NCBI GenBank assembly: GCA_031082155.1
Contig: JAVHLL010000006.1
Coordinates: forward strand, 952-64,951
Reading direction: 5' to 3'
DNA: 64,000 nt
Source: Thermodesulfovibrionales bacterium
Lineage (GTDB): Bacteria > Nitrospirota > Thermodesulfovibrionia > Thermodesulfovibrionales > SM23-35
Part shown: positions 13,917 to 55,800 of the stretch, one piece after another
Layout: the number at the start of each line of letters is the position of its first letter
Numbering within the stretch: position 1 is the first letter of the stretch
The notes under the pieces: generated by a model
Databases searched by the model: none
What the model was told of the DNA's origin: nothing
What the model saw: the letters and a program-made list of their open reading frames with translations, nothing else
Program-made: the position numbers and the translations under genes

Positions 13917-14089
13917 AGGTATATACCAATAAGAGCAAGAGCAATGCCAGATTGCAACTGTTTGATATTATTGATATTTAATACACCTACCCGTCTTTTC
14001 ACAAGTCATTTTGCCGTACCCTGAGGACAAAATTCCCTGAGACTGTTCAACCGAAATTTGTCCAGAACAAATGATTTAGACTGCCGGAA

Positions 14090-14262
14090 AGGAATGGATA
14101 TGGCGAAATTTCTGAAGAGAGATCACGGGTAGTCTCGATGAGGCTGAAGACAAAGCGGAAGCCTCACGTATGAATTGAATAAAAACATTGCAGTCAGATA
14201 AAGGCTGGGATAAAAGCAAAGATAGTTTATCTCTCTTCAGAAATTTCGCCATATCCATTCCT
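14090..14262 (+). repeat. structured intergenic element, copy A (candidate ncRNA or PATE-like MITE)
   Basis: 14090-14123 is the exact reverse complement of 14229-14262 (34 bp). The interior shares ordered conserved blocks with 25342-25506 and 20004-20129. Confidence 0.7.
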
Positions 14263-14351
14263 CAGAATATTTTGGAAAACCATGAATTTGTATATAATGA
14301 TTAAAGCATACAGTATCATACTGCTTACAGCCTTGCAGGCAAGGAGGATAT

Positions 14352-20003: not shown

Positions 20004-20129
20004 GGAATTTATGGGACATGGCTCAATCTCCGAATCGAACCCACTGACAACTTCGATGAGACCGAAGACGACGCTCAGGTTCCCGGGGCTTATCAGGTTT
20101 CCATGATATGCCGGCATGCCCGAATTACC
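20004..20129 (+). repeat. structured intergenic element, copy C (shorter, more diverged)
   Basis: Core TTCGATGAGACCGAAGACGACGC at 20051-20074. It sits between imperfectly complementary arms ggaatttatgggacatgg (20004-21) and ccatgatatgccggcatgcccgaattacc (20101-29). Confidence 0.4.
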
Positions 20130-25179: not shown

Positions 25180-25341
25180 CGGTGTCCTTTTTTATAAGTT
25201 CCCCTCTTCAGGAAAAGAGGGGCAGGGAGAGATTTGATCAATGAAGGGGTTTTTAAAAATCCTTTCGTTCATATCAAAATTATACCACAAGTGTTTTTTG
25301 TTCGATTGAATCATTGCCATTTGTTCAAAATAATCAGGTAT

Positions 25342-25506
25342 AGGGATAAGGCTTTATTTCCAGATAGAAATCACGGATAACCTCGATGAGATCGGAGACG
25401 AAGCATAGTTCTCAACTCTTCATAGTTCACTGCCAGAAAAGTCAGGGGAAGGTTTGCACAGAAATAGAGAGAGTTTATTTCGATTTGGAAATAAAGCCTT
25501 ATCCCT
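25342..25506 (+). repeat. structured intergenic element, copy B
   Basis: agggataaggctttatttcca (25342-62) is the exact reverse complement of 25486-25506. The interior blocks ATCACGG, CTCGATGAGATCGGAGACGAAGC and AGTCAG-GGG-AAGG are spaced exactly as in copy A. Confidence 0.7.
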
Positions 25507-25583
25507 CTGGTTCTTTCAGAAATAGTTATTCGGGGATGGTCTGAAATTGAATAAGGTCAAGAGAATCTTTTATAGTAAGTGAT

Positions 25584-36392: not shown

Positions 36393-36442
36393 GGTACCCC
36401 CTGCAGGAATTGAACCTGCGGCACCAGGTTTAGGAAACCGAT
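36393..36442 (-). tRNA. tRNA-Arg(CCT)-like 3' fragment (anticodon arm to CCA); putative att core, not an intact tRNA
   Basis: The minus strand reads TCGGT-TTCCTAA-ACCTG-GTGCC-GCAGG-TTCAATT-CCTGC-AGGGGGT-A-CCA. That gives an anticodon loop U-U-CCU-A-A, a 5-nt variable loop, a canonical T-arm, the acceptor 3' strand and an encoded CCA. The adjacent 5' side has only 21 nt and cannot form a D-arm. Confidence 0.55.
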
Positions 36443-36555
36443 TTGGCCGGGACCAAGAAGGCTTGAAAATACCTAATTTATTGCATCATATCAATAAGTT
36501 ATCATGCTTTTGCACTACGTTAAGATTTGTCGTATTTTGCCTTGTTTTGAGCTAT

Positions 36556-38225: not shown

Positions 38226-38927
38226 TCATGAAGTATTAATATTTCTACCATATATCAGTAAATCTCCAGTTTCAGGATTCTGCGCGATTGTATCTATTCT
38301 CTTCCTCCCTCCGGGATATGGAGAATCGTCCAGTGAATGAACAACGATAGGTCTTAACCCTCTTCCTGCATATTCAAGTGTTTTGAATAAGTAACCCATG
38401 AACGAGCCCGAATAGCGATAGCGTCGTATGCAGTCCTCAATACTCTTTTGAAGCAAATACTCATATCCCTCCCAACGAGAAATTTTGGGATTATGTTCGA
38501 TCCACTCATCAATAGTGAACCTTACCAACTTAATAATTTCCTGTCTGGCTGTCACATTTCCTTTCTGGGCAATTCTCACTAACGCGATACTGATAATGTC
38601 CCGTATAGAATCATTATCTTTGTCAGCCGGAGTTAAAAAGGTGTAGAGTTTGTCATTATATTTATGAAGAATAATGTTGACCTCAGTTTCACTTCGATAA
38701 AGTTTGGTTCCGTTACGCCGGGATGTAACCCATTGTTTTTGAAATTTACGATCCAAAGCACGGGTAATTCTATCCCAGTCTATGCCGCCGCTTTCTCTTC
38801 TTATGTTCTTCTGAAAGAATCGATAAATATGTGGAGCGTATCCTCGTATCCAGGAGCTATTGAATGTATGCGGTTGTTTCTTTCTTAGCAGTTTGTTTAA
38901 AGTTTTAATAGCAGAATCAAAATCCAT
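38226..38927 (-). CDS. hypothetical protein (weak sigma-70 region-2-like segment)
   Basis: 233-aa ORF. ...CIRRYRYSGSFMGYLFKTLEYA loosely resembles sigma region 2. Its first ~30 codons and its upstream region are duplicated at 42306-42505. Confidence 0.5.
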   Translation of the reverse strand: MDFDSAIKTLNKLLRKKQPHTFNSSWIRGYAPHIYRFFQKNIRRESGGIDWDRITRALDRKFQKQWVTSRRNGTKLYRSETEVNIILHKYNDKLYTFLTPADKDNDSIRDIISIALVRIAQKGNVTARQEIIKLVRFTIDEWIEHNPKISRWEGYEYLLQKSIEDCIRRYRYSGSFMGYLFKTLEYAGRGLRPIVVHSLDDSPYPGGRKRIDTIAQNPETGDLLIYGRNINTS

Positions 38928-39101
38928 TGTCTTAACTTATATCGAAACGGTAGTGACTGCAGGGCTTTCCGTTTGAGGCCGTAGATTTACAATAGGAAAA
39001 TGAGGAAGGTTTTTCAATAGTCCCTCGTTCATTTGGGAGAGGATTGTGTTCATTTATTTAATAAGTACATTTTCAGTGAACGATAAATATTACTGAACAT
39101 G
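38831..39101. repeat. direct repeat copy I (5' end of the 233-aa gene plus a divergent promoter/operator region)
   Basis: It aligns with 42306-42505, for example tatccaggagctattgaatgt...gcagaatcaaaatccattgtcttaacttat...ggattgtgttcat...ataaatattactgaacatg. Copy I carries an extra internal segment of about 60 bp. Confidence 0.75.
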
Positions 39102-39217
39102 AAAAAGTTAACATGTTAACCTTCAAGGTCAATTGGCTTTTTGGAGAGTGCAAATATAACCTCTTGGATTCAAAAATAATTCTCCCATAGAAGATTTTTA
39201 TTCAAGAACTTGACTTT

Positions 39218-39270
39218 TGTTCATTTTTTTTGTATGTTCATATTAACTGAACAGTATAAATAAGTGAACA
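39218..39270 (+). promoter_or_regulatory. nested inverted-repeat operator: TGTTCA-n11-TGTTCA-n7-TGAACA-n11-TGAACA
   Basis: Half-sites at 39218-23, 39235-40, 39248-53 and 39265-70. The last one abuts the ATG at 39271. Further TGTTCA/TGAACA sites occur at 39047, 39094, 42449, 42466 and 42496. Confidence 0.6.
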
Positions 39271-40329
39271 ATGACTATGGACAGAAGAACGAATAGAGAC
39301 ACACAAGAAGAAATCTTTCGCCTTGCTATCGAGGCTTTCCGAAAGAACATCCAGGCGCAAGCCGAGATTGAGATTTTGGCCGAGGAACCTGCCTTTGCAA
39401 TGGGGTTTCGGCCAGACCATCGAGTAAGGATGATGATACAAGAGAAGGCAATGGTTTACTATGCCGAAATAAAAACAACCATTACGAAACCATACAAGCT
39501 CTTATTGCTGATGCACAAAGAGAAACTCAACTACCCTCTTTTATTGGTCGCAAAATATGTAAATGCACAGATGGCGGAGCAGCTGAGGCTTGATGGCATC
39601 GAATTTATCGACACAGCCGGCAACGCCTTTATAAACCAGCCGCCAACATATATATTTTTGAAGGGTAACAAACCGACAGAGGATGTCAGAACAGCTCCGC
39701 TCAAAAGAGCATTCAAGCCCGCAGGCCTCAGAATCATTTATGCTTTCTTGTGTAATCCCGGTTTTGAGAATAAGACCTACCGTGAGATAGCTGGAGCAAC
39801 AGACGTAGCCCTCGGTACAGTCGGCTGGATCATGAAAGAACTAAAGGACCTTGGCTTTCTTTTGGATATGGGGAAACGAGGGAATAAACTGACAGAAAGA
39901 GAAAATCTGTTTCAAAGATGGGTTACAGCTTATCCGGAAAAATTGAGACCAAAGCTAATTCTCGGGCATTATAAAGGCGAACATGGATGGTGGCAGCAGA
40001 AGAAACTTGACCCGCTGGCAGCACAGTGGGGTGGAGAGGTTGCTGCTGAAAAGCTCACACATTACCTCAAACCCGAGGTCATCACGATATATACAACGAC
40101 TCAGCAGCTCAATCAGCTGTTACTCGGGAACAGACTCAGGAAAGATCCTGAAGGAGATGTTGAAATCCTCGAAAAGTTCTGGAAGCCAGTTGGTAAATTG
40201 GAATACGAAGACCTTGTGCATCCGATCCTTGTTTATGCAGATCTCCTGGCAACCGGGAATCAGAGGAATATTGAAACAGCGAAGATGATCTATGAGCAAC
40301 ATATCATTCGACTTATCAGGGAAGATTGA
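39271..40329 (+). CDS. AbiEi-like (type IV TA antitoxin-type) DNA-binding protein with an N-terminal PD-(D/E)xK-like domain
   Basis: 352 aa. D...AEIK nuclease-fold-like motif, central wHTH (YREIAGATDVALGTVGWIMKELKDLGFL) and a C-terminal domain. It is followed by a nucleotidyltransferase. The family call is from memory of the AbiEi_2-type architecture. Confidence 0.6.
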   Translation: MTMDRRTNRDTQEEIFRLAIEAFRKNIQAQAEIEILAEEPAFAMGFRPDHRVRMMIQEKAMVYYAEIKTTITKPYKLLLLMHKEKLNYPLLLVAKYVNAQMAEQLRLDGIEFIDTAGNAFINQPPTYIFLKGNKPTEDVRTAPLKRAFKPAGLRIIYAFLCNPGFENKTYREIAGATDVALGTVGWIMKELKDLGFLLDMGKRGNKLTERENLFQRWVTAYPEKLRPKLILGHYKGEHGWWQQKKLDPLAAQWGGEVAAEKLTHYLKPEVITIYTTTQQLNQLLLGNRLRKDPEGDVEILEKFWKPVGKLEYEDLVHPILVYADLLATGNQRNIETAKMIYEQHIIRLIRED

Positions 40330-41265: not shown

Positions 41266-42348
41266 ATGATAAAGGTCGAAGAGATAAAAGAGGTGTATAA
41301 TTTTGAACCCAAATACACCTTCTCGCAACTCGAACAGAATTTGCCGAAGGGATTTGAGGCAAAAATACAAGATGGCAGCCTTTATAAAGCGGTTAGAAGG
41401 CTTACGGATAAAGTTTATCCTACTGAAGAAAACAGCTATGAAAAGAAATGGTTCGACTTCTATCTGCCGCTCAAACGGAGGGGTTATTTTATTCTCGTGC
41501 CGCTGGGAATAATTCTGTATGACAAAAGATTTTTTTTGGCATTTCCGCATTCAAACGTTGAAGTGCACACCGGCAAGGAAAAGAACGAGTTTTATCTATG
41601 TTTGATACAGCAGACCGTGGAGTTTTCACGAGTACTCAAAAAAGATCCGGGGATTATCGCGAAGGCGATACCATTTGATATTAGAACAGGGCATGTGCTT
41701 GGGAAATATGTTCTGGAAGATCTGTTACCTATAGAGAAAAAGGAAGAGATTTTGAAGCTATATGGAGACCATGGTAAAAGGGGAAAAAGGTCGCGTGGCG
41801 TCTCTCTTAGCGATTATCTGAATACAGCTGCCCTTTGCTACAAGGCTGCCTTTGGCAGTAAGACCAATGGTTTGACTGCCGAACAGATGTACAGGAAATG
41901 GGCTGACGGTAGAGATTGCGGCATGCTCCGCAGAAAAAATAAGAAAAGTAAAAAGGACTTCAGTCATTGGTTAGACACCGAGGCACATTGCGGAGGACAT
42001 CCCTTTGAGATAGTATTCAGTTGGTTCGGCCACGGCATTCATCTGTTTCCACCAGACCTGAACAATCCTTATTTTACTTTGCGTGTGACGAATTACATGT
42101 ATGCATTGGCTTTTCTCGAAATGGTCAAAGAATTTATTAAAAACAGGATACCGTTTAAGGCCCATAAACTCGAAGGTGTTCTCGATTATTTGTCTGGTGA
42201 AAGTTATTTTACCGTCAATGCCCATGACGAGCACAATATTTTCTATTCCTATGAGGATCGAAAACTTTTGAGACATATAGAATGGGACGAGCCTAACATA
42301 TTGATATGGAAAGCAAGTCCCAATATCCAAGAACTATTGAATGTTTGA
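41266..42348 (+). CDS. hypothetical protein
   Basis: 360-aa ORF with no recognisable family. Its last ~100 nt overlap an antisense truncated paralog of the 233-aa gene. Confidence 0.5.
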   Translation: MIKVEEIKEVYNFEPKYTFSQLEQNLPKGFEAKIQDGSLYKAVRRLTDKVYPTEENSYEKKWFDFYLPLKRRGYFILVPLGIILYDKRFFLAFPHSNVEVHTGKEKNEFYLCLIQQTVEFSRVLKKDPGIIAKAIPFDIRTGHVLGKYVLEDLLPIEKKEEILKLYGDHGKRGKRSRGVSLSDYLNTAALCYKAAFGSKTNGLTAEQMYRKWADGRDCGMLRRKNKKSKKDFSHWLDTEAHCGGHPFEIVFSWFGHGIHLFPPDLNNPYFTLRVTNYMYALAFLEMVKEFIKNRIPFKAHKLEGVLDYLSGESYFTVNAHDEHNIFYSYEDRKLLRHIEWDEPNILIWKASPNIQELLNV

Positions 42349-42404
42349 GGTTGTCTATCTACCAGTAGTTTATTTATGGTTTTAACAGCAGAATCGAAAT
42401 CCAT
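42249..42404 (-). pseudogene. truncated paralog of the 38226-38927 gene
   Basis: MDFDSAVKTINKLLVDRQPQTFNSSWILGLAFHI... compares with MDFDSAIKTLNKLLRKKQPHTFNSSWIRGYAPHI... Homology is lost after about 30 codons and a stop follows at codon 52. Confidence 0.6.
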
Positions 42405-42505
42405 TGTCTTAACTTATACCAAAACCCCCAGTCATTGGAGAAGGATTGTGTTCACTTATTTTATATGTTCATCTTTAGTAAACAATAAATATTACTGAAC
42501 ATGGC
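42306..42505. repeat. direct repeat copy II (see 38831-39101)
   Basis: It shows the same ordered sequence blocks as copy I, upstream of the second AbiE cassette. Confidence 0.75.
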
Positions 42506-42652
42506 AAAAATTTATAGTAAACAAAGGAGACGGATACGTTGATCTGAAGGCACAAAGGTAGGGATAGAGACAGTGCCATTTTTAAAGCAATCAATTCTCT
42601 TGACCAATTATTGTAAATGTTATATTATGTAAGCCATAGGTAGGCTGTAGAG

Positions 42653-52874: not shown

Positions 52875-55800
52875 ATGGATAGACAAGAAGCAGTCAGATT
52901 AATTGAAGAAACCTTTAATAAACCATTTGATGAATGGCAGTTCCGGTATTTTGTAAAGAATCTGCTGAATGAAATTGACGAATCGAAGTCATTGGAAATC
53001 CACGGCGCTTACATTAAAAACGCATTTTCAGATTGTATCAGGCAGTATAAACGAATCGGAACATTCACAGACTCTGAAGGGTTAAAGTTGGATGTTCTGA
53101 TTGTGAACCTCAAGAGGGGCATCTCAGTCGAAAGAGCAAGGACCACTCAAAGGAATTTCGTAGCCCACCATCTGAAACAAAGGGATAACAAAGATGCAGC
53201 TTTAGTCGCTTTTTATTCCGATGGATCGGAAGACTGGCGATTTTCTTTTGTCCACATGGATTACAGGACAATCCAGACAGAAAGCGGCAAGGTAAAAGTT
53301 GAGGAAGAACTCACTCCTGCGAGAAGATACTCTTTTCTGGTCGGTGAGAACGAGCCAAATCATACAGCCCGGCAACAACTTGTCCCCATTCTTGAAGATG
53401 ACAGGAATAATCCGACCCTTGCAGATATCGAACATGCCTTTAACATCGAGTCTGTAACCAAAGAATTTTTCAACAGGTATAAAGACCTTTTCCTGAAAGT
53501 GAAAGAGGAGCTGGATACTGTAGTAGTCGTTGATCAAAAAATAAAAACGGAATTCGAGAGCAAGCAAATTGACACTGCAAACTTTGCCAAAAAGCTCCTC
53601 GGCCAGATCGTTTTCCTCTATTTCATTCAGAAAAAGGGCTGGCTGGGTGTCGGTAAAGACAGGACATGGGGTACCGGACCGAGAAACTTCTTACGAAGGC
53701 TTTTTGAGAAAGAGATCGTCAGCTATGACAATTTCTTCAATGATATCCTCGAACCTCTGTTCTACGAAGCACTTGCAATAGACAGAGGGGAAATATCATT
53801 TTACAGCCGGTTCAACTGCAAAATCCCGTTTCTGAACGGCGGCTTGTTCGAACCGATTAATGGTTACAACTGGGAGGAGACGGATATTCTCCTTAAGAAC
53901 GAGACCGTCAGAGAGATCCTCGATACCTTTGACCTTTACAATTTTACCGTCCGGGAGGACGAACCGCTTGAAAGAGAAGTGGCTGTTGACCCTGAAATGC
54001 TCGGAAAGGTTTTTGAGAACCTGCTTGAGGTCAAAGACCGCAAGTCAAAAGGCACCTATTATACCCCTCGCGAGATTGTCCACTACATGTGCCAGGAAAG
54101 CCTCATCAATTATCTGGACACTACTATCAATACTCAGGAAGAGACTGTAATTCCTCAAAAACCTGTTCAGAAAAGTCTTATAGGAGAAGATAAGCCGGAA
54201 CAGGCATCACTTACCGTTCAGACACATAAGGTGGTAATCCCTCGTGAAGACATTGAAGCCTTTATCAGGAGAGGCGATTTTGCAATAAACAATGATCTTG
54301 CGAAAGAACAAGGGACAAAATCATATACCTACAAAATGCCCGAGAGTATACGGAACAATGCGCGGCTCTTTGATGACAAGCTAACAGATATAAAAATCTG
54401 TGACCCTGCCATTGGGTCAGGGGCATTCCCCGTCGGTATGATGCATGAGATTGTTCGGGCAAGAGAAACATTAACAACTTATATTAATGAGGGCAGAAGT
54501 AGAACCGCCTATAATTTCAAACGCCATGCTATCCAAGAGTCGATCTATGGCGTCGACATTGACCCCGGTGCTGTAGATATAGCAAAACTCCGCCTTTGGC
54601 TCTCCCTTGTCGTTGATGAAGATGACTTCAAAACCATCAAGCCTTTGCCTAATCTTGATTATAAGATCGTCTGCGGAGATTCTCTTTCGAGTGTAAATAC
54701 TTTGTTCCATCACATCGAACTCAAGAAGCTTGAGAGGCTCAAAGCGAAATACTTTGAGGAGACCAGACCCAGAGAAAAGACACATATAAAAGAAGAAATT
54801 GATAATCTCATAAGCGAGATTACGAATAATGATAAGCATTTCGACTTTAAAGTCTATTTCAGCGAAGTTTTTCATAAAAATGGTGGATTCGACATTGTGC
54901 TCGCAAATCCTCCATACATACGTCACGAAACTATCAGGGAGTTGAAACCTGAGCTAAAGAAGGAATTCGGCGATTTCTTTTGCGGCACGGCAGACATCTA
55001 TACTTATTTCTACAAGAAGGGAATCGAACTGCTAAAGCCATACGGTCACCTTTGCTTTATCGCGCCAAACAAATTTATGCGGGCCGGCTACGGCAAGAAT
55101 ACTCGAAAATTGCTTGCTACACAGGTAACGCCGAAGGTGATCATCGATTTCTGCGATCTCCCGATATTTGATGCAACGACATATCCGTCAATTATCCTTG
55201 TTGAGAAAACGCCTTTTGTAGGGGCGGCCCTATGTGGCCGCCCTGATTTGATTAATCAACAACCACCAAAAGAAGGGCAACCACACAGGGTTGCCCCTAC
55301 AAAAACGGAATTTCTTGCCGCAACATTTACCGACGCCGCCCAATTGGAACGGCTGGAAGAAACCCTATCAAACATTGGATTTCCAATACCAATCTCTTCA
55401 TTGAGAGAAGAAGGCTGGAATCTTGAGCGGCCTGAGATTTTAGCGTTGATGGAAAAACTGCGCAAAGCCGGAACGCCGCTTGATGAGTATGTGCAGGGAC
55501 GGTTTTATCGGGGCATATTGACAGGTCTTAATGAGGCTTTTGTAATTGATGAAGTTACTCGGAAAAACCTTATTTCAGAAGACCCTAAAAGCGAAGAACT
55601 TATCAAGTCGTGGTTAAGAGGAAGGGATATTAAGAAATGGAAGGCTGAATGGGCAGGATTGTATTTGATAAATATTCCAAGTAGTGCAAATCATCACTGG
55701 CAATGGTCAGATGAAAAAACTGAGGGAAAGGCGAAAAAAATATTTTCCCGAACTTATCCCGCCATCCATAAACACCTGTCGCAGTGGGAAGACAGGCTTG

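Follow-up and report, generated by a model that had tools for sequence, protein, structure and literature searches.

Here we examined a hairpin-forming repeat upstream of mnmG in a Thermodesulfovibrionales bacterium (assembly GCA_031082155.1; 2.65 Mb in 56 contigs; hereafter G000). It lies in a stretch of 64,000 nt, referred to as the window, which comprises positions 952-64951 of contig C56 (JAVHLL010000006.1). We conclude that this repeat, copy B of three in the window, is very probably an old copy, immobile by now and undergoing slow decay, of a ∼233-nt, Nitrospirota-specific, non-autonomous DNA transposon, that is, a miniature inverted-repeat transposable element (MITE), whose inner arms recombine and thereby flip its core. 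The first-pass annotation of the window had described the hairpin as a stand-alone structured element and had named membership of a longer mobile element as the finding that would count against this. The hairpin does sit in a longer mobile element, bounded by outer terminal inverted repeats (TIRs) and an 8-bp target-site duplication (TSD). The family shows the features by which MITEs are recognized, namely small size, no coding capacity, TIRs, a TSD of fixed length, dispersed copies, and presence or absence at orthologous sites.

The ends of the element were read from G009 (Nitrospirae bacterium L.E.D.9), a genome from another genus of the same family, whose copies are nearly identical and therefore indicate a recent burst. 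Conservation in this burst continues beyond the hairpin to the left and to the right, giving the arrangement (TSD)CACATCTGTCCAAAATAATACTTCATGCTCTTAGAAAG-hairpin-TTATATAGAATATTTTGGACAGCAATGA(TSD), and the outermost ∼17-20 nt of each flank are inverted repeats of each other. Just outside these TIRs we found direct duplications of 8 bp, which agree at 8/8 positions in six copies and at 7/8 in three; a 60-nt derivative made up of the outer ends only (L202) also keeps an 8-bp TSD, TTTCGGAT. The outer TIRs, CACATCTGTCCAAAATA and TATTTTGGACAGCAATGA, occur in G009, G000, G004 and G015 as well as in one Dissulfurispiraceae metagenome-assembled genome (MAG), and are degenerate in copy B. A right-end motif, M, follows 12 of the 22 full-length copies in G000. 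The linker between outer repeat and hairpin is longer on the left (∼26 nt) than on the right (∼13-15 nt), an asymmetry from which the orientation of the core relative to the ends can be read. Direct repeats, att sites and a long TSD were also considered as explanations for the motifs in the flanks; the motifs are instead outer TIRs, containing the palindrome AATATT, set off by unequal linkers. Nor is M an independent target, since every strong “solo” M in G000 proved to be joined to a right-arm remnant.

For copy B the ends (Table 1) were set by the G009 burst consensus CACATCTGTCCAAAATA...TATTTTGGACAGCAATGA, by a reverse-orientation match of the M-motif hidden Markov model to the left flank, and by the congeners G001 and G002, whose sites are empty. 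Two further congeners, G003 and G004, whose mnmG DNA is 94% identical to that of G000, carry the element with the same duplication at the mnmG locus. G001 and G002 (mnmG DNA 83% and 78% identical, respectively) lack the element, and AATTGAAT is present once at their mnmG site. The “right-end”-type outer end reads TTTTGGACGGCAATGA in the G004 orthologue and TTTTGGATGGCAATGA in that of G003, at linker 13, which is also the linker at which the right TIR of copy A, TTTTGGAAAACCATGA, is found. At the other end of copy B, the reverse complement of the outer segment aligns with the left outer segment of the family (linker ...TATTTCNNNCTGCAAGAAC... plus TIR). Filled and empty orthologous sites were identified at further loci, several with deletion derivatives; at locus C56_105067, for example, G004 retains just the last 17 nt of the right arm.

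Table 1. Parts of the copy B element and the other family copies in the window (window coordinates).
Feature	Position	Strand	Remarks
Left TSD, 8 bp (CGATTGAA)	25303-25310		6/8 positions match AAATTGAA at 25544-25551
Full MITE copy B, 233 nt	25311-25543	- (by outer ends)	Short-linker end left, long-linker end right
“Right-end”-type outer end, TIR + short linker (TCATTGCCATTTGTTCAAAATAATCAGGTAT)	25311-25341		Reverse complement matches right-end motif CCTGAATATTTTGGACAGCAATGA
Left inner arm (5' side of the helix in the first-pass annotation)	25342-25371		Inverted repeat I3, 30 nt, 93%, 21 bp perfect
Invertible conserved core	25372-25476	+	ATCACGG, P3 hairpin, AGTCAGG, GAGAGTTTA; opposite to outer ends
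Inner hairpin P3 (TGAGATC / GTTCTCA, loop GGAGACGAAGCATA)	25387-25414	+	RNAalifold pairs 50-54:69-73
Right inner arm	25477-25506		Inverted repeat I3
“Left-end”-type outer end, long linker + degenerate TIR ending ...GGGGATGGTCTG	25507-25543		
Right TSD (AAATTGAA)	25544-25551		Overlaps -35 hexamer of promoter-like site
Copy A, ∼233 nt, canonical orientation	14053-14285 (left end approximate)	+	Hairpin 14090-14262, 34-bp perfect arms, 105 nt between
Copy C, truncated and degenerate	20013-20117	+	Model positions 1-94; nhmmer match C56:20964-21068

Iterated nhmmer searches recovered 33 copies of the repeat in G000, all of them intergenic and 22 of full length (∼162 nt). From an alignment of 19 full G000 copies we built a covariance model, which matched copy B, with its core on the + strand, at G000:C56:26291-26458 (160.5 bits). 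The model identified 34 copies in G000, 6, 30, 28 and 35 copies in the congeners G001, G002, G003 and G004, 56 in G009 and 34 in G022 (Nitrospirae bacterium L.E.N.5_1, from a further genus of the same family), with a few each in several other genera. In nearly all other families of the order the model found no copies, the one borderline match (E = 8e-4) being in G029. A pattern scan across 185,579 species genomes returned Thermodesulfovibrionales/Nitrospirota MAGs and one Dissulfurispiraceae MAG. It also hit seven records from beta-proteobacteria, Planctomycetaceae, Desulfobacterales, Gemmatimonadaceae, Actinomycetes, Kocuria and Flaviflagellibacter, none of which gave a model match; the four that we inspected were unrelated GC-rich sequence, and we treated these matches as chance. 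The gene contexts of the 33 G000 copies were mixed and showed no sense bias. A crude tally that pointed to an antisense bias (15 vs 4 between co-directional genes) was discarded, since the underlying gene calls, based on open reading frames (ORFs), were wrong at some loci and the cores flip.

Derivatives of the element were observed in G009 (L202, L203, L201, L205), where they include the 60-nt ends-only form, partial internal deletions and one copy with a nested insertion of another hairpin repeat. Many G009 contigs start or stop inside MITE copies, so the assembly is fragmented by the element. The AT-rich genome G022 holds ∼34 near-identical hairpin modules (L062-L075, L209-L212) without the CACATCTGTCC/GGACAGCAATGA outer ends. 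Many of these are inside a larger shared repeat (...AGCTTATAGTAAACAACTAATAACATAATC-hairpin-AAACAACCCCCTGACCCCC...), and one copy with unique flanks has other inverted repeats (AATGCAATTGAAATAATGCGGA) ∼70 nt further out; either the core may have moved to a new vehicle in this genome or the ends may have diverged.

Comparison of orthologous copies showed that the core inverts in place after insertion. At locus C5_66056 the flanks, outer parts and arms of the element are the same in G004 as in G000, and the interior is the exact reverse complement. Alignment revealed the same reversal between these two genomes at copy A and at locus C31_21835. To count orientations we set the strand on which the flanks matched against that of the model matches, these three inversions being the ones confirmed by alignment. 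The core is opposite at 5 of the 11 orthologous loci shared by G000 and G004, at 1 of 7 shared with G003, and at no fewer than one locus (at least C55_48706) shared with G001. Within G000 itself ∼13 copies are canonical and ∼5, copy B included, have swapped linker lengths, their core running against the outer ends. None of the 17 copies scored in the young burst of G009 is reversed (0/17). If neutral, flips at about half of the loci over ∼6% divergence would put the flip rate at some 10-fold that of substitution per site. Such a rate is compatible with infrequent, spontaneous exchange between repeats of 28-30 bp, by recombination or by template switching, and not with phase variation. As a consequence of in-place inversion, the core has no fixed strand relation to neighbouring genes.

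The hairpin on which the first-pass annotation was based is real and was described accurately in most respects. agggataaggctttatttcca (25342-25362) does form a perfect 21-bp helix with its complement (25486-25506), enclosing 123 nt, as read directly from the sequence, and a repeat finder (pair I3) extended the arms to 30 nt with 93% complementarity and 105 nt between them. ATCACGG (25370-25376), CTCGATGAGATCGGAGACGAAGC (25382-25404) and AGTCAGGGGAAGG (from 25440) are all located as claimed, and the 5-nt and 35-nt spacings are indeed identical to those in copy A (14090-14262). The accompanying statement that the 35-nt spacer sequences of copies A and B are unrelated was wrong: the first ∼10 nt are the 3' strand of the inner hairpin P3. 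The rest of the spacer does differ, copies A and B belonging to two subfamilies of one repeat family, separated by substitutions without insertions or deletions. The fold far outperforms shuffled controls, with -58 kcal/mol for the + strand of copy B against -34.6 ± 3.5 (z = -6.6). The - strand folds nearly equally (-52 kcal/mol, z = -5.6), as one would expect of a palindrome. A small ORF overlapping the hairpin (MRLKTKRK..., 25386-25544, 52 aa) was set aside, as its ATG is missing in several copies (GATAAG, GATTAG and GAGGAG variants). So was a hammerhead-like reading of CUGAUGAG...CGAAGC, in which stem II cannot form, the consensus is YYYGAUGAG and Rfam gives no ribozyme match.

RNAalifold analysis of the 19 full G000 copies predicted a 28-bp closing helix, P1, in which 26 of the 28 pairs show changes on both sides. 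Within it lie a small hairpin, P2 (CGGG/YYYG), with G-C to G-U changes only, and the P3 hairpin, which exists in two covarying states, GCU/AGC and ACC/GGU. The observed covariation was reached in none of 500 shuffles and surpassed every slid control. Left arms are only 64% identical between copies, yet the arms of one copy are 93.6% Watson-Crick paired with each other versus 63.4% when a left arm is matched with the right arm of another copy. The arms are thus coupled within each copy. The earlier proposal had held that the conserved spacing reflects a structural constraint rather than the drift of a repeat. The part of it that stands is that the arms are complementary beyond what plain repeat drift would give. 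A structural RNA-type element tied to mnmG is not upheld, given the mobile element around the hairpin, the flips, the promoter-like site downstream, the decay of resident copies at the pace of their flanks and the absence of an Rfam match.

The manner in which the arms change points to exchange between them. At one arm position the orthologues of copy B have T-A in G000, A-T in G003 and a C/T mismatch in G004, the first two constituting a double change in situ within ∼6% divergence. Of the ∼20 G009 copies sampled, nearly all show an identical set of four non-wobble mismatches in their arms, derived from the master copy; perfect arm pairing is therefore not needed for spread, and was found only in older copies. 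In the G000 arms G-U pairs number 13 and A-C pairs 7, a difference that is not significant, and the P1 covariation is strong but symmetric. These observations, together with the fold of the - strand, favour arm exchange over selection on an RNA stem, with arm-to-arm exchange as the cause of the “compensatory” stem changes. In larger inverted repeats, the identity of the arms is generally attributed to copying from one to the other. A template-switch mechanism of matching kind has been described for quasipalindrome-associated mutations in E. coli (PMC7202029).

The genomic setting of copy B is the divergent intergenic region originally described, with mnmG (Pfam GIDA, E = 2.5e-175) 77 nt downstream and a radical SAM gene on the - strand; each of the window copies A, B and C precedes a gene on the + strand. 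A promoter-like site for mnmG, TTGAAT-18-TATAGT, occupies 25547-25576 and ends 8 nt before the mnmG ATG (25584), and the sequence around it is conserved in the MITE-free genomes G001 and G002. The copy B hairpin is probably upstream of the mnmG promoter and not in a leader, and mnmG may be nearly leaderless here. An Rfam scan of the 64-kb window placed no family on the element at gathering threshold, the best relaxed match to it being MIR173 with 15.8 bits against a threshold of 70.

Taken together, these data suggest the following course of events. The outer TIRs of ∼20 bp (CACATCTGTCCAAAATA ... TATTTTGGACAGCAATGA) are the transposition ends, whose use results in the 8-bp target duplication that we observe, and a transposase of the DDE type would act on them in trans. 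Duplications of 8 bp are produced by several DDE transposase families. In an inserted copy, the two arms of 28-30 bp would recombine or template-switch, giving the inversions of the ∼105-nt core seen at orthologous loci. The same exchange, by way of heteroduplex repair or template switching, may copy one arm onto the other, such that arms within a copy stay complementary as the copies diverge from each other, which is the pattern found. Copy B would have inserted at AAATTGAA, just upstream of the likely -35 element of mnmG, which was thereby duplicated, at a time when its lineage had separated from G001/G002 but G000, G003 and G004 had not yet diverged. Its core is now turned against its outer ends, and its arms and P3 have since gained uncompensated changes. 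The weakest step concerns the conservation of the core across genera, which most probably reflects sequences acting in cis for the spread of the element itself and not a service to the host. Selection would then operate among elements, with only those copies that have an intact, canonically oriented core being mobilised.

The last step seeks to reconcile two sets of observations. Across genera, the blocks AAATCACGGGT, GAG-RYY-GRAGWCGAAGCRNA-RRY-CTC (P3 with its loop) and GGTAGTTTAT are kept in elements with 46%, 40% and 30% GC, and the arm sequence changes between genera while the core blocks stay, so something must select on these blocks. Between orthologues, cores are 0.86-0.97 identical versus 0.86-0.95 for flanks; cores evolving as fast as flanks give no sign of host-level constraint at resident loci. 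Copy B is itself an example: compared with its G004 orthologue, in which P3 is intact (GAGACC...GGTCTC), it has lost the P3 pairing, with one T-T mismatch and altered loop and stem bases, and shows two uncompensated arm changes. The G003 orthologue of copy B (L014, G003:C332) differs in another way, carrying a variant inner module, CCCGAATAGGCTTTAGCCTTTCGGG, that is about 12-16 nt longer and in which a different small hairpin replaces P2 and the 5' half of P3. The variant also occurs in the unlinked G000 copies at C55:48706 and C5:3116, and at the mnmG locus it is present in G003 and not in G000 or G004, a distribution that argues for sequence exchange (conversion) between unlinked copies.

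We weighed this account against four others. Were the hairpin a structured non-coding or cis-regulatory RNA, with selection for folding on the stem and inner hairpins and an action on mnmG or whichever gene is adjacent, the strong fold (z = -6.6) and the massive covariation of P1 would be expected, as would the covariation of P3 between ACC/GGU and GCU/AGC, the confinement of P2 changes to G-C to G-U on the G000 + strand, and the location of each of the three window copies upstream of a + strand gene. In-place inversion alone already largely refutes this, 5 of 11 orthologous loci having a reversed core between unaltered neighbouring genes. In addition, the hairpin lies inside a TSD-flanked mobile element, the contexts of the 33 copies have no sense bias, the promoter-like mnmG site is downstream of the element, the - strand fold is nearly as good, P2 has not been kept in G022, Rfam gives no match, and orthologous cores change as fast as flanks. 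We therefore consider an RNA serving mnmG or its counterparts very unlikely. We allow a small chance that the core is a functional single-stranded module of the element, of RNA or DNA, which is its own unit of selection, can travel in different outer frames and serves, for example, as a recognition or guide structure for the mobilising enzyme or as a small RNA that benefits the element. The conservation of its blocks from a genome of 46% GC to one of ∼30% GC while the arms change is what such a module would show, and the two covarying states of the P3 stem in several genera, the G-U excess on one strand, the different outer context with other inverted repeats in G022, and the different inner variant at the mnmG locus of G003, with modules exchanged between copies, all agree with it. 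Against this, the two P3 states amount to no more than one or two events in evolution, the decay of resident copies is neutral, flips relative to the outer ends are tolerated, template switching in DNA can also “perfect” small hairpins, and no associated protein was found in a survey of 113 loci and five transposase families. A specific version, in which the core, with features biased to one strand (the ATCACGGG block, P3 with its invariant GAAGWCGAAGCG loop, and the GGTAGTTTAT block), is an RNA or single-stranded DNA cassette, the arms are its orientation switch and the MITE is a mere vehicle, appears unlikely too.

The inversions themselves raise the question of a programmed inverton, in which the arms would be sites for a site-specific recombinase and the core would carry a promoter or terminator as a phase-variation switch. 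Close relatives do carry a segment between inverted repeats in either orientation at one and the same locus, but the flips seen are between genomes only, and the rate they imply would be orders of magnitude below that of phase variation. The young bursts of G009 (0/17) and G022 have no flips, the core of copy B contains no convincing promoter (matches fall only in the outer part and the flank), the arm sequences vary between copies as recombinase sites would not, and no recombinase recurs near the element at the 113 loci; such a switch is highly improbable. Mobilisation as a REPIN, a doublet of repetitive extragenic palindromic (REP) hairpins moved on single-stranded DNA by a RAYT (Y1/HUH) transposase, is scarcely credible. 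It would suit the hairpin shape, the dispersed intergenic copies and some strand-specific features, and Y1_Tnp genes are present in G000 (2 matches) and in most relatives. However, Y1 transposition does not produce 8-bp duplications and outer TIRs, Y1_Tnp occurs whether or not the element does (34 of 41 genomes, among them most of those that lack the element) and is missing from G009 with its 56 copies, and a conserved, non-palindromic core of ∼105 nt stands in place of two REPs.

The interpretation of copy B as a MITE copy with recombining arms must itself contend with several findings that it does not predict. The TSD of copy B is a 6/8 match and not a perfect one. Across genera the interior is better conserved than the termini, which is unusual for a MITE, and the outer frame around the hairpin module of G022 is a different one that lacks these TIRs. 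G-U pairs exceed A-C pairs on the + strand of the core (13:7 in the G000 arms, 28:2 in P2), hinting at selection on one strand; P2 for its part collapses in G022 to C-A plus three G-U pairs. The search for a mobilising enzyme is also unhelpful to this interpretation. An analysis of neighbour enrichment over 113 loci found no gene, transposase or recombinase, that recurs beside the element, only housekeeping paralogues, and neither in G000 nor in G009 does a transposase lie between a pair of TIRs. The distribution of Y1, IS110, IS256, ISL3 and IS1595 transposases does not follow that of the element, and the MAG of G009, which has the youngest burst, contains none of the five families, although MAGs often lose multi-copy insertion sequences (ISs). 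In G000, the ends of the IS256-like and ISL3-like genes are unrelated and lack the MITE TIRs.

Two candidates for an autonomous element were examined and rejected. Two half-copies 6.6 kb apart on C34 could have been its ends, and the list of ORFs between them, to which no family search was applied, has no transposase-like entry. A TIR pair 1.7 kb apart in G009:C152 turned out to be two MITEs around a 399-aa ORF that does not resemble a transposase.

Correia elements (CREE/NEMIS) of Neisseria and the ERIC/IRU elements of enterobacteria are bacterial MITEs that fold into long hairpins. Like them, the element described here is non-coding, multi-copy, intergenic and within the range of 100-250 nt, has TIRs, a TSD and a long predicted stem, and is present or absent at orthologous sites. 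It differs from Correia in its TSD, which is 8 bp and not TA, and from both in its nested inverted repeats, its conserved and invertible interior, its restriction to Nitrospirota and the lack of a known partner IS. The arms resemble the inverted repeats of chloroplast genomes, the 2-micron plasmid and Y-chromosome palindromes in being kept identical by intramolecular exchange with the spacer in both orientations. In contrast to those large inverted repeats, the arms here are only 28-30 bp with a 105-nt spacer inside a MITE, and the exchange is deduced from comparative genomics. A further parallel is offered by the quasipalindromes of E. coli, imperfect palindromes that are “perfected” by copying one arm from the other (PMC7202029). 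RecA-type recombination and template switching during replication are not separable from our data. With invertons such as fimS and hin the element shares a short segment between inverted repeats that occurs in both orientations, and departs from them in an apparently far lower flip rate, copy-specific arms, dozens of copies, and no recombinase or promoter found. As in REPINs, dispersed intergenic hairpin repeats evolve as populations within genomes; unlike REPINs, the element has TSDs, outer TIRs and a long non-palindromic core, and shows no correlation with Y1 genes.

Our results bear on genome scans for structured RNA, as a significant fold with “compensatory” changes need not mean a functional RNA: palindromic repeats can gain such changes by exchange of DNA between arms. 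With regard to mobile DNA, this is apparently an undescribed Thermodesulfovibrionales MITE family that has nested repeats and a conserved interior rather than conserved ends; a full-text literature search found no description of MITEs in Thermodesulfovibrio or Nitrospirae. The family also provides a natural system for measuring recombination between short inverted repeats and the “perfecting” of palindromes, with the middle flipped at about half of the shared loci between genomes ∼6% apart. For annotation it is relevant that units of 230 nt break MAG assemblies and sit at promoters, as at the mnmG -35.

Other repeats were observed around the MITE copies. A second dispersed repeat, consisting of a CCCCTCTT..AAGAGGGG hairpin followed by CAGGGAGAGATTT, is found just left of copy B (window 25208-25245), left of the G000 copy at C5:3116, and in G003 at C5_66056 (L030); at several loci it lies beside the MITE or takes its place. 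A third repeat, a palindrome of the form ATTATCCGG-N-CCGGATAAT close to a TCCCCGACTTGATC...GATCAAGTCGGAGGA hairpin, was noted in G003:C316 (L024) and G003:C261 (L025), at sites where G000 has a MITE; at one of the G003 sites it breaks a MITE copy just past the start of the left arm. Intergenic MITE sites thus seem to collect several repeat families.

Elsewhere in the window, the sole Rfam match is a putative tRNA at 36395-36462 on the - strand, which scores 29 bits, equal to the gathering score, and has a shortened D region. Direct repeats of ∼200 nt, 78-82% identical, lie at 38827-39277 and 42304-42508, with a weaker 74-nt copy (61%) at 39204-39277. They contain TGTTCA(T/C)TTATTT..AGTGAACG-like motifs before ATG codons and look like duplicated promoter/operator regions of paralogous operons. 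Finally, a 36-nt inverted repeat (TTTTGTAGGGGCGGCCCTATGTGGCCGCCC...) at 55214-55304, 81% complementary with a 19-nt loop, could be a terminator or another repeat.

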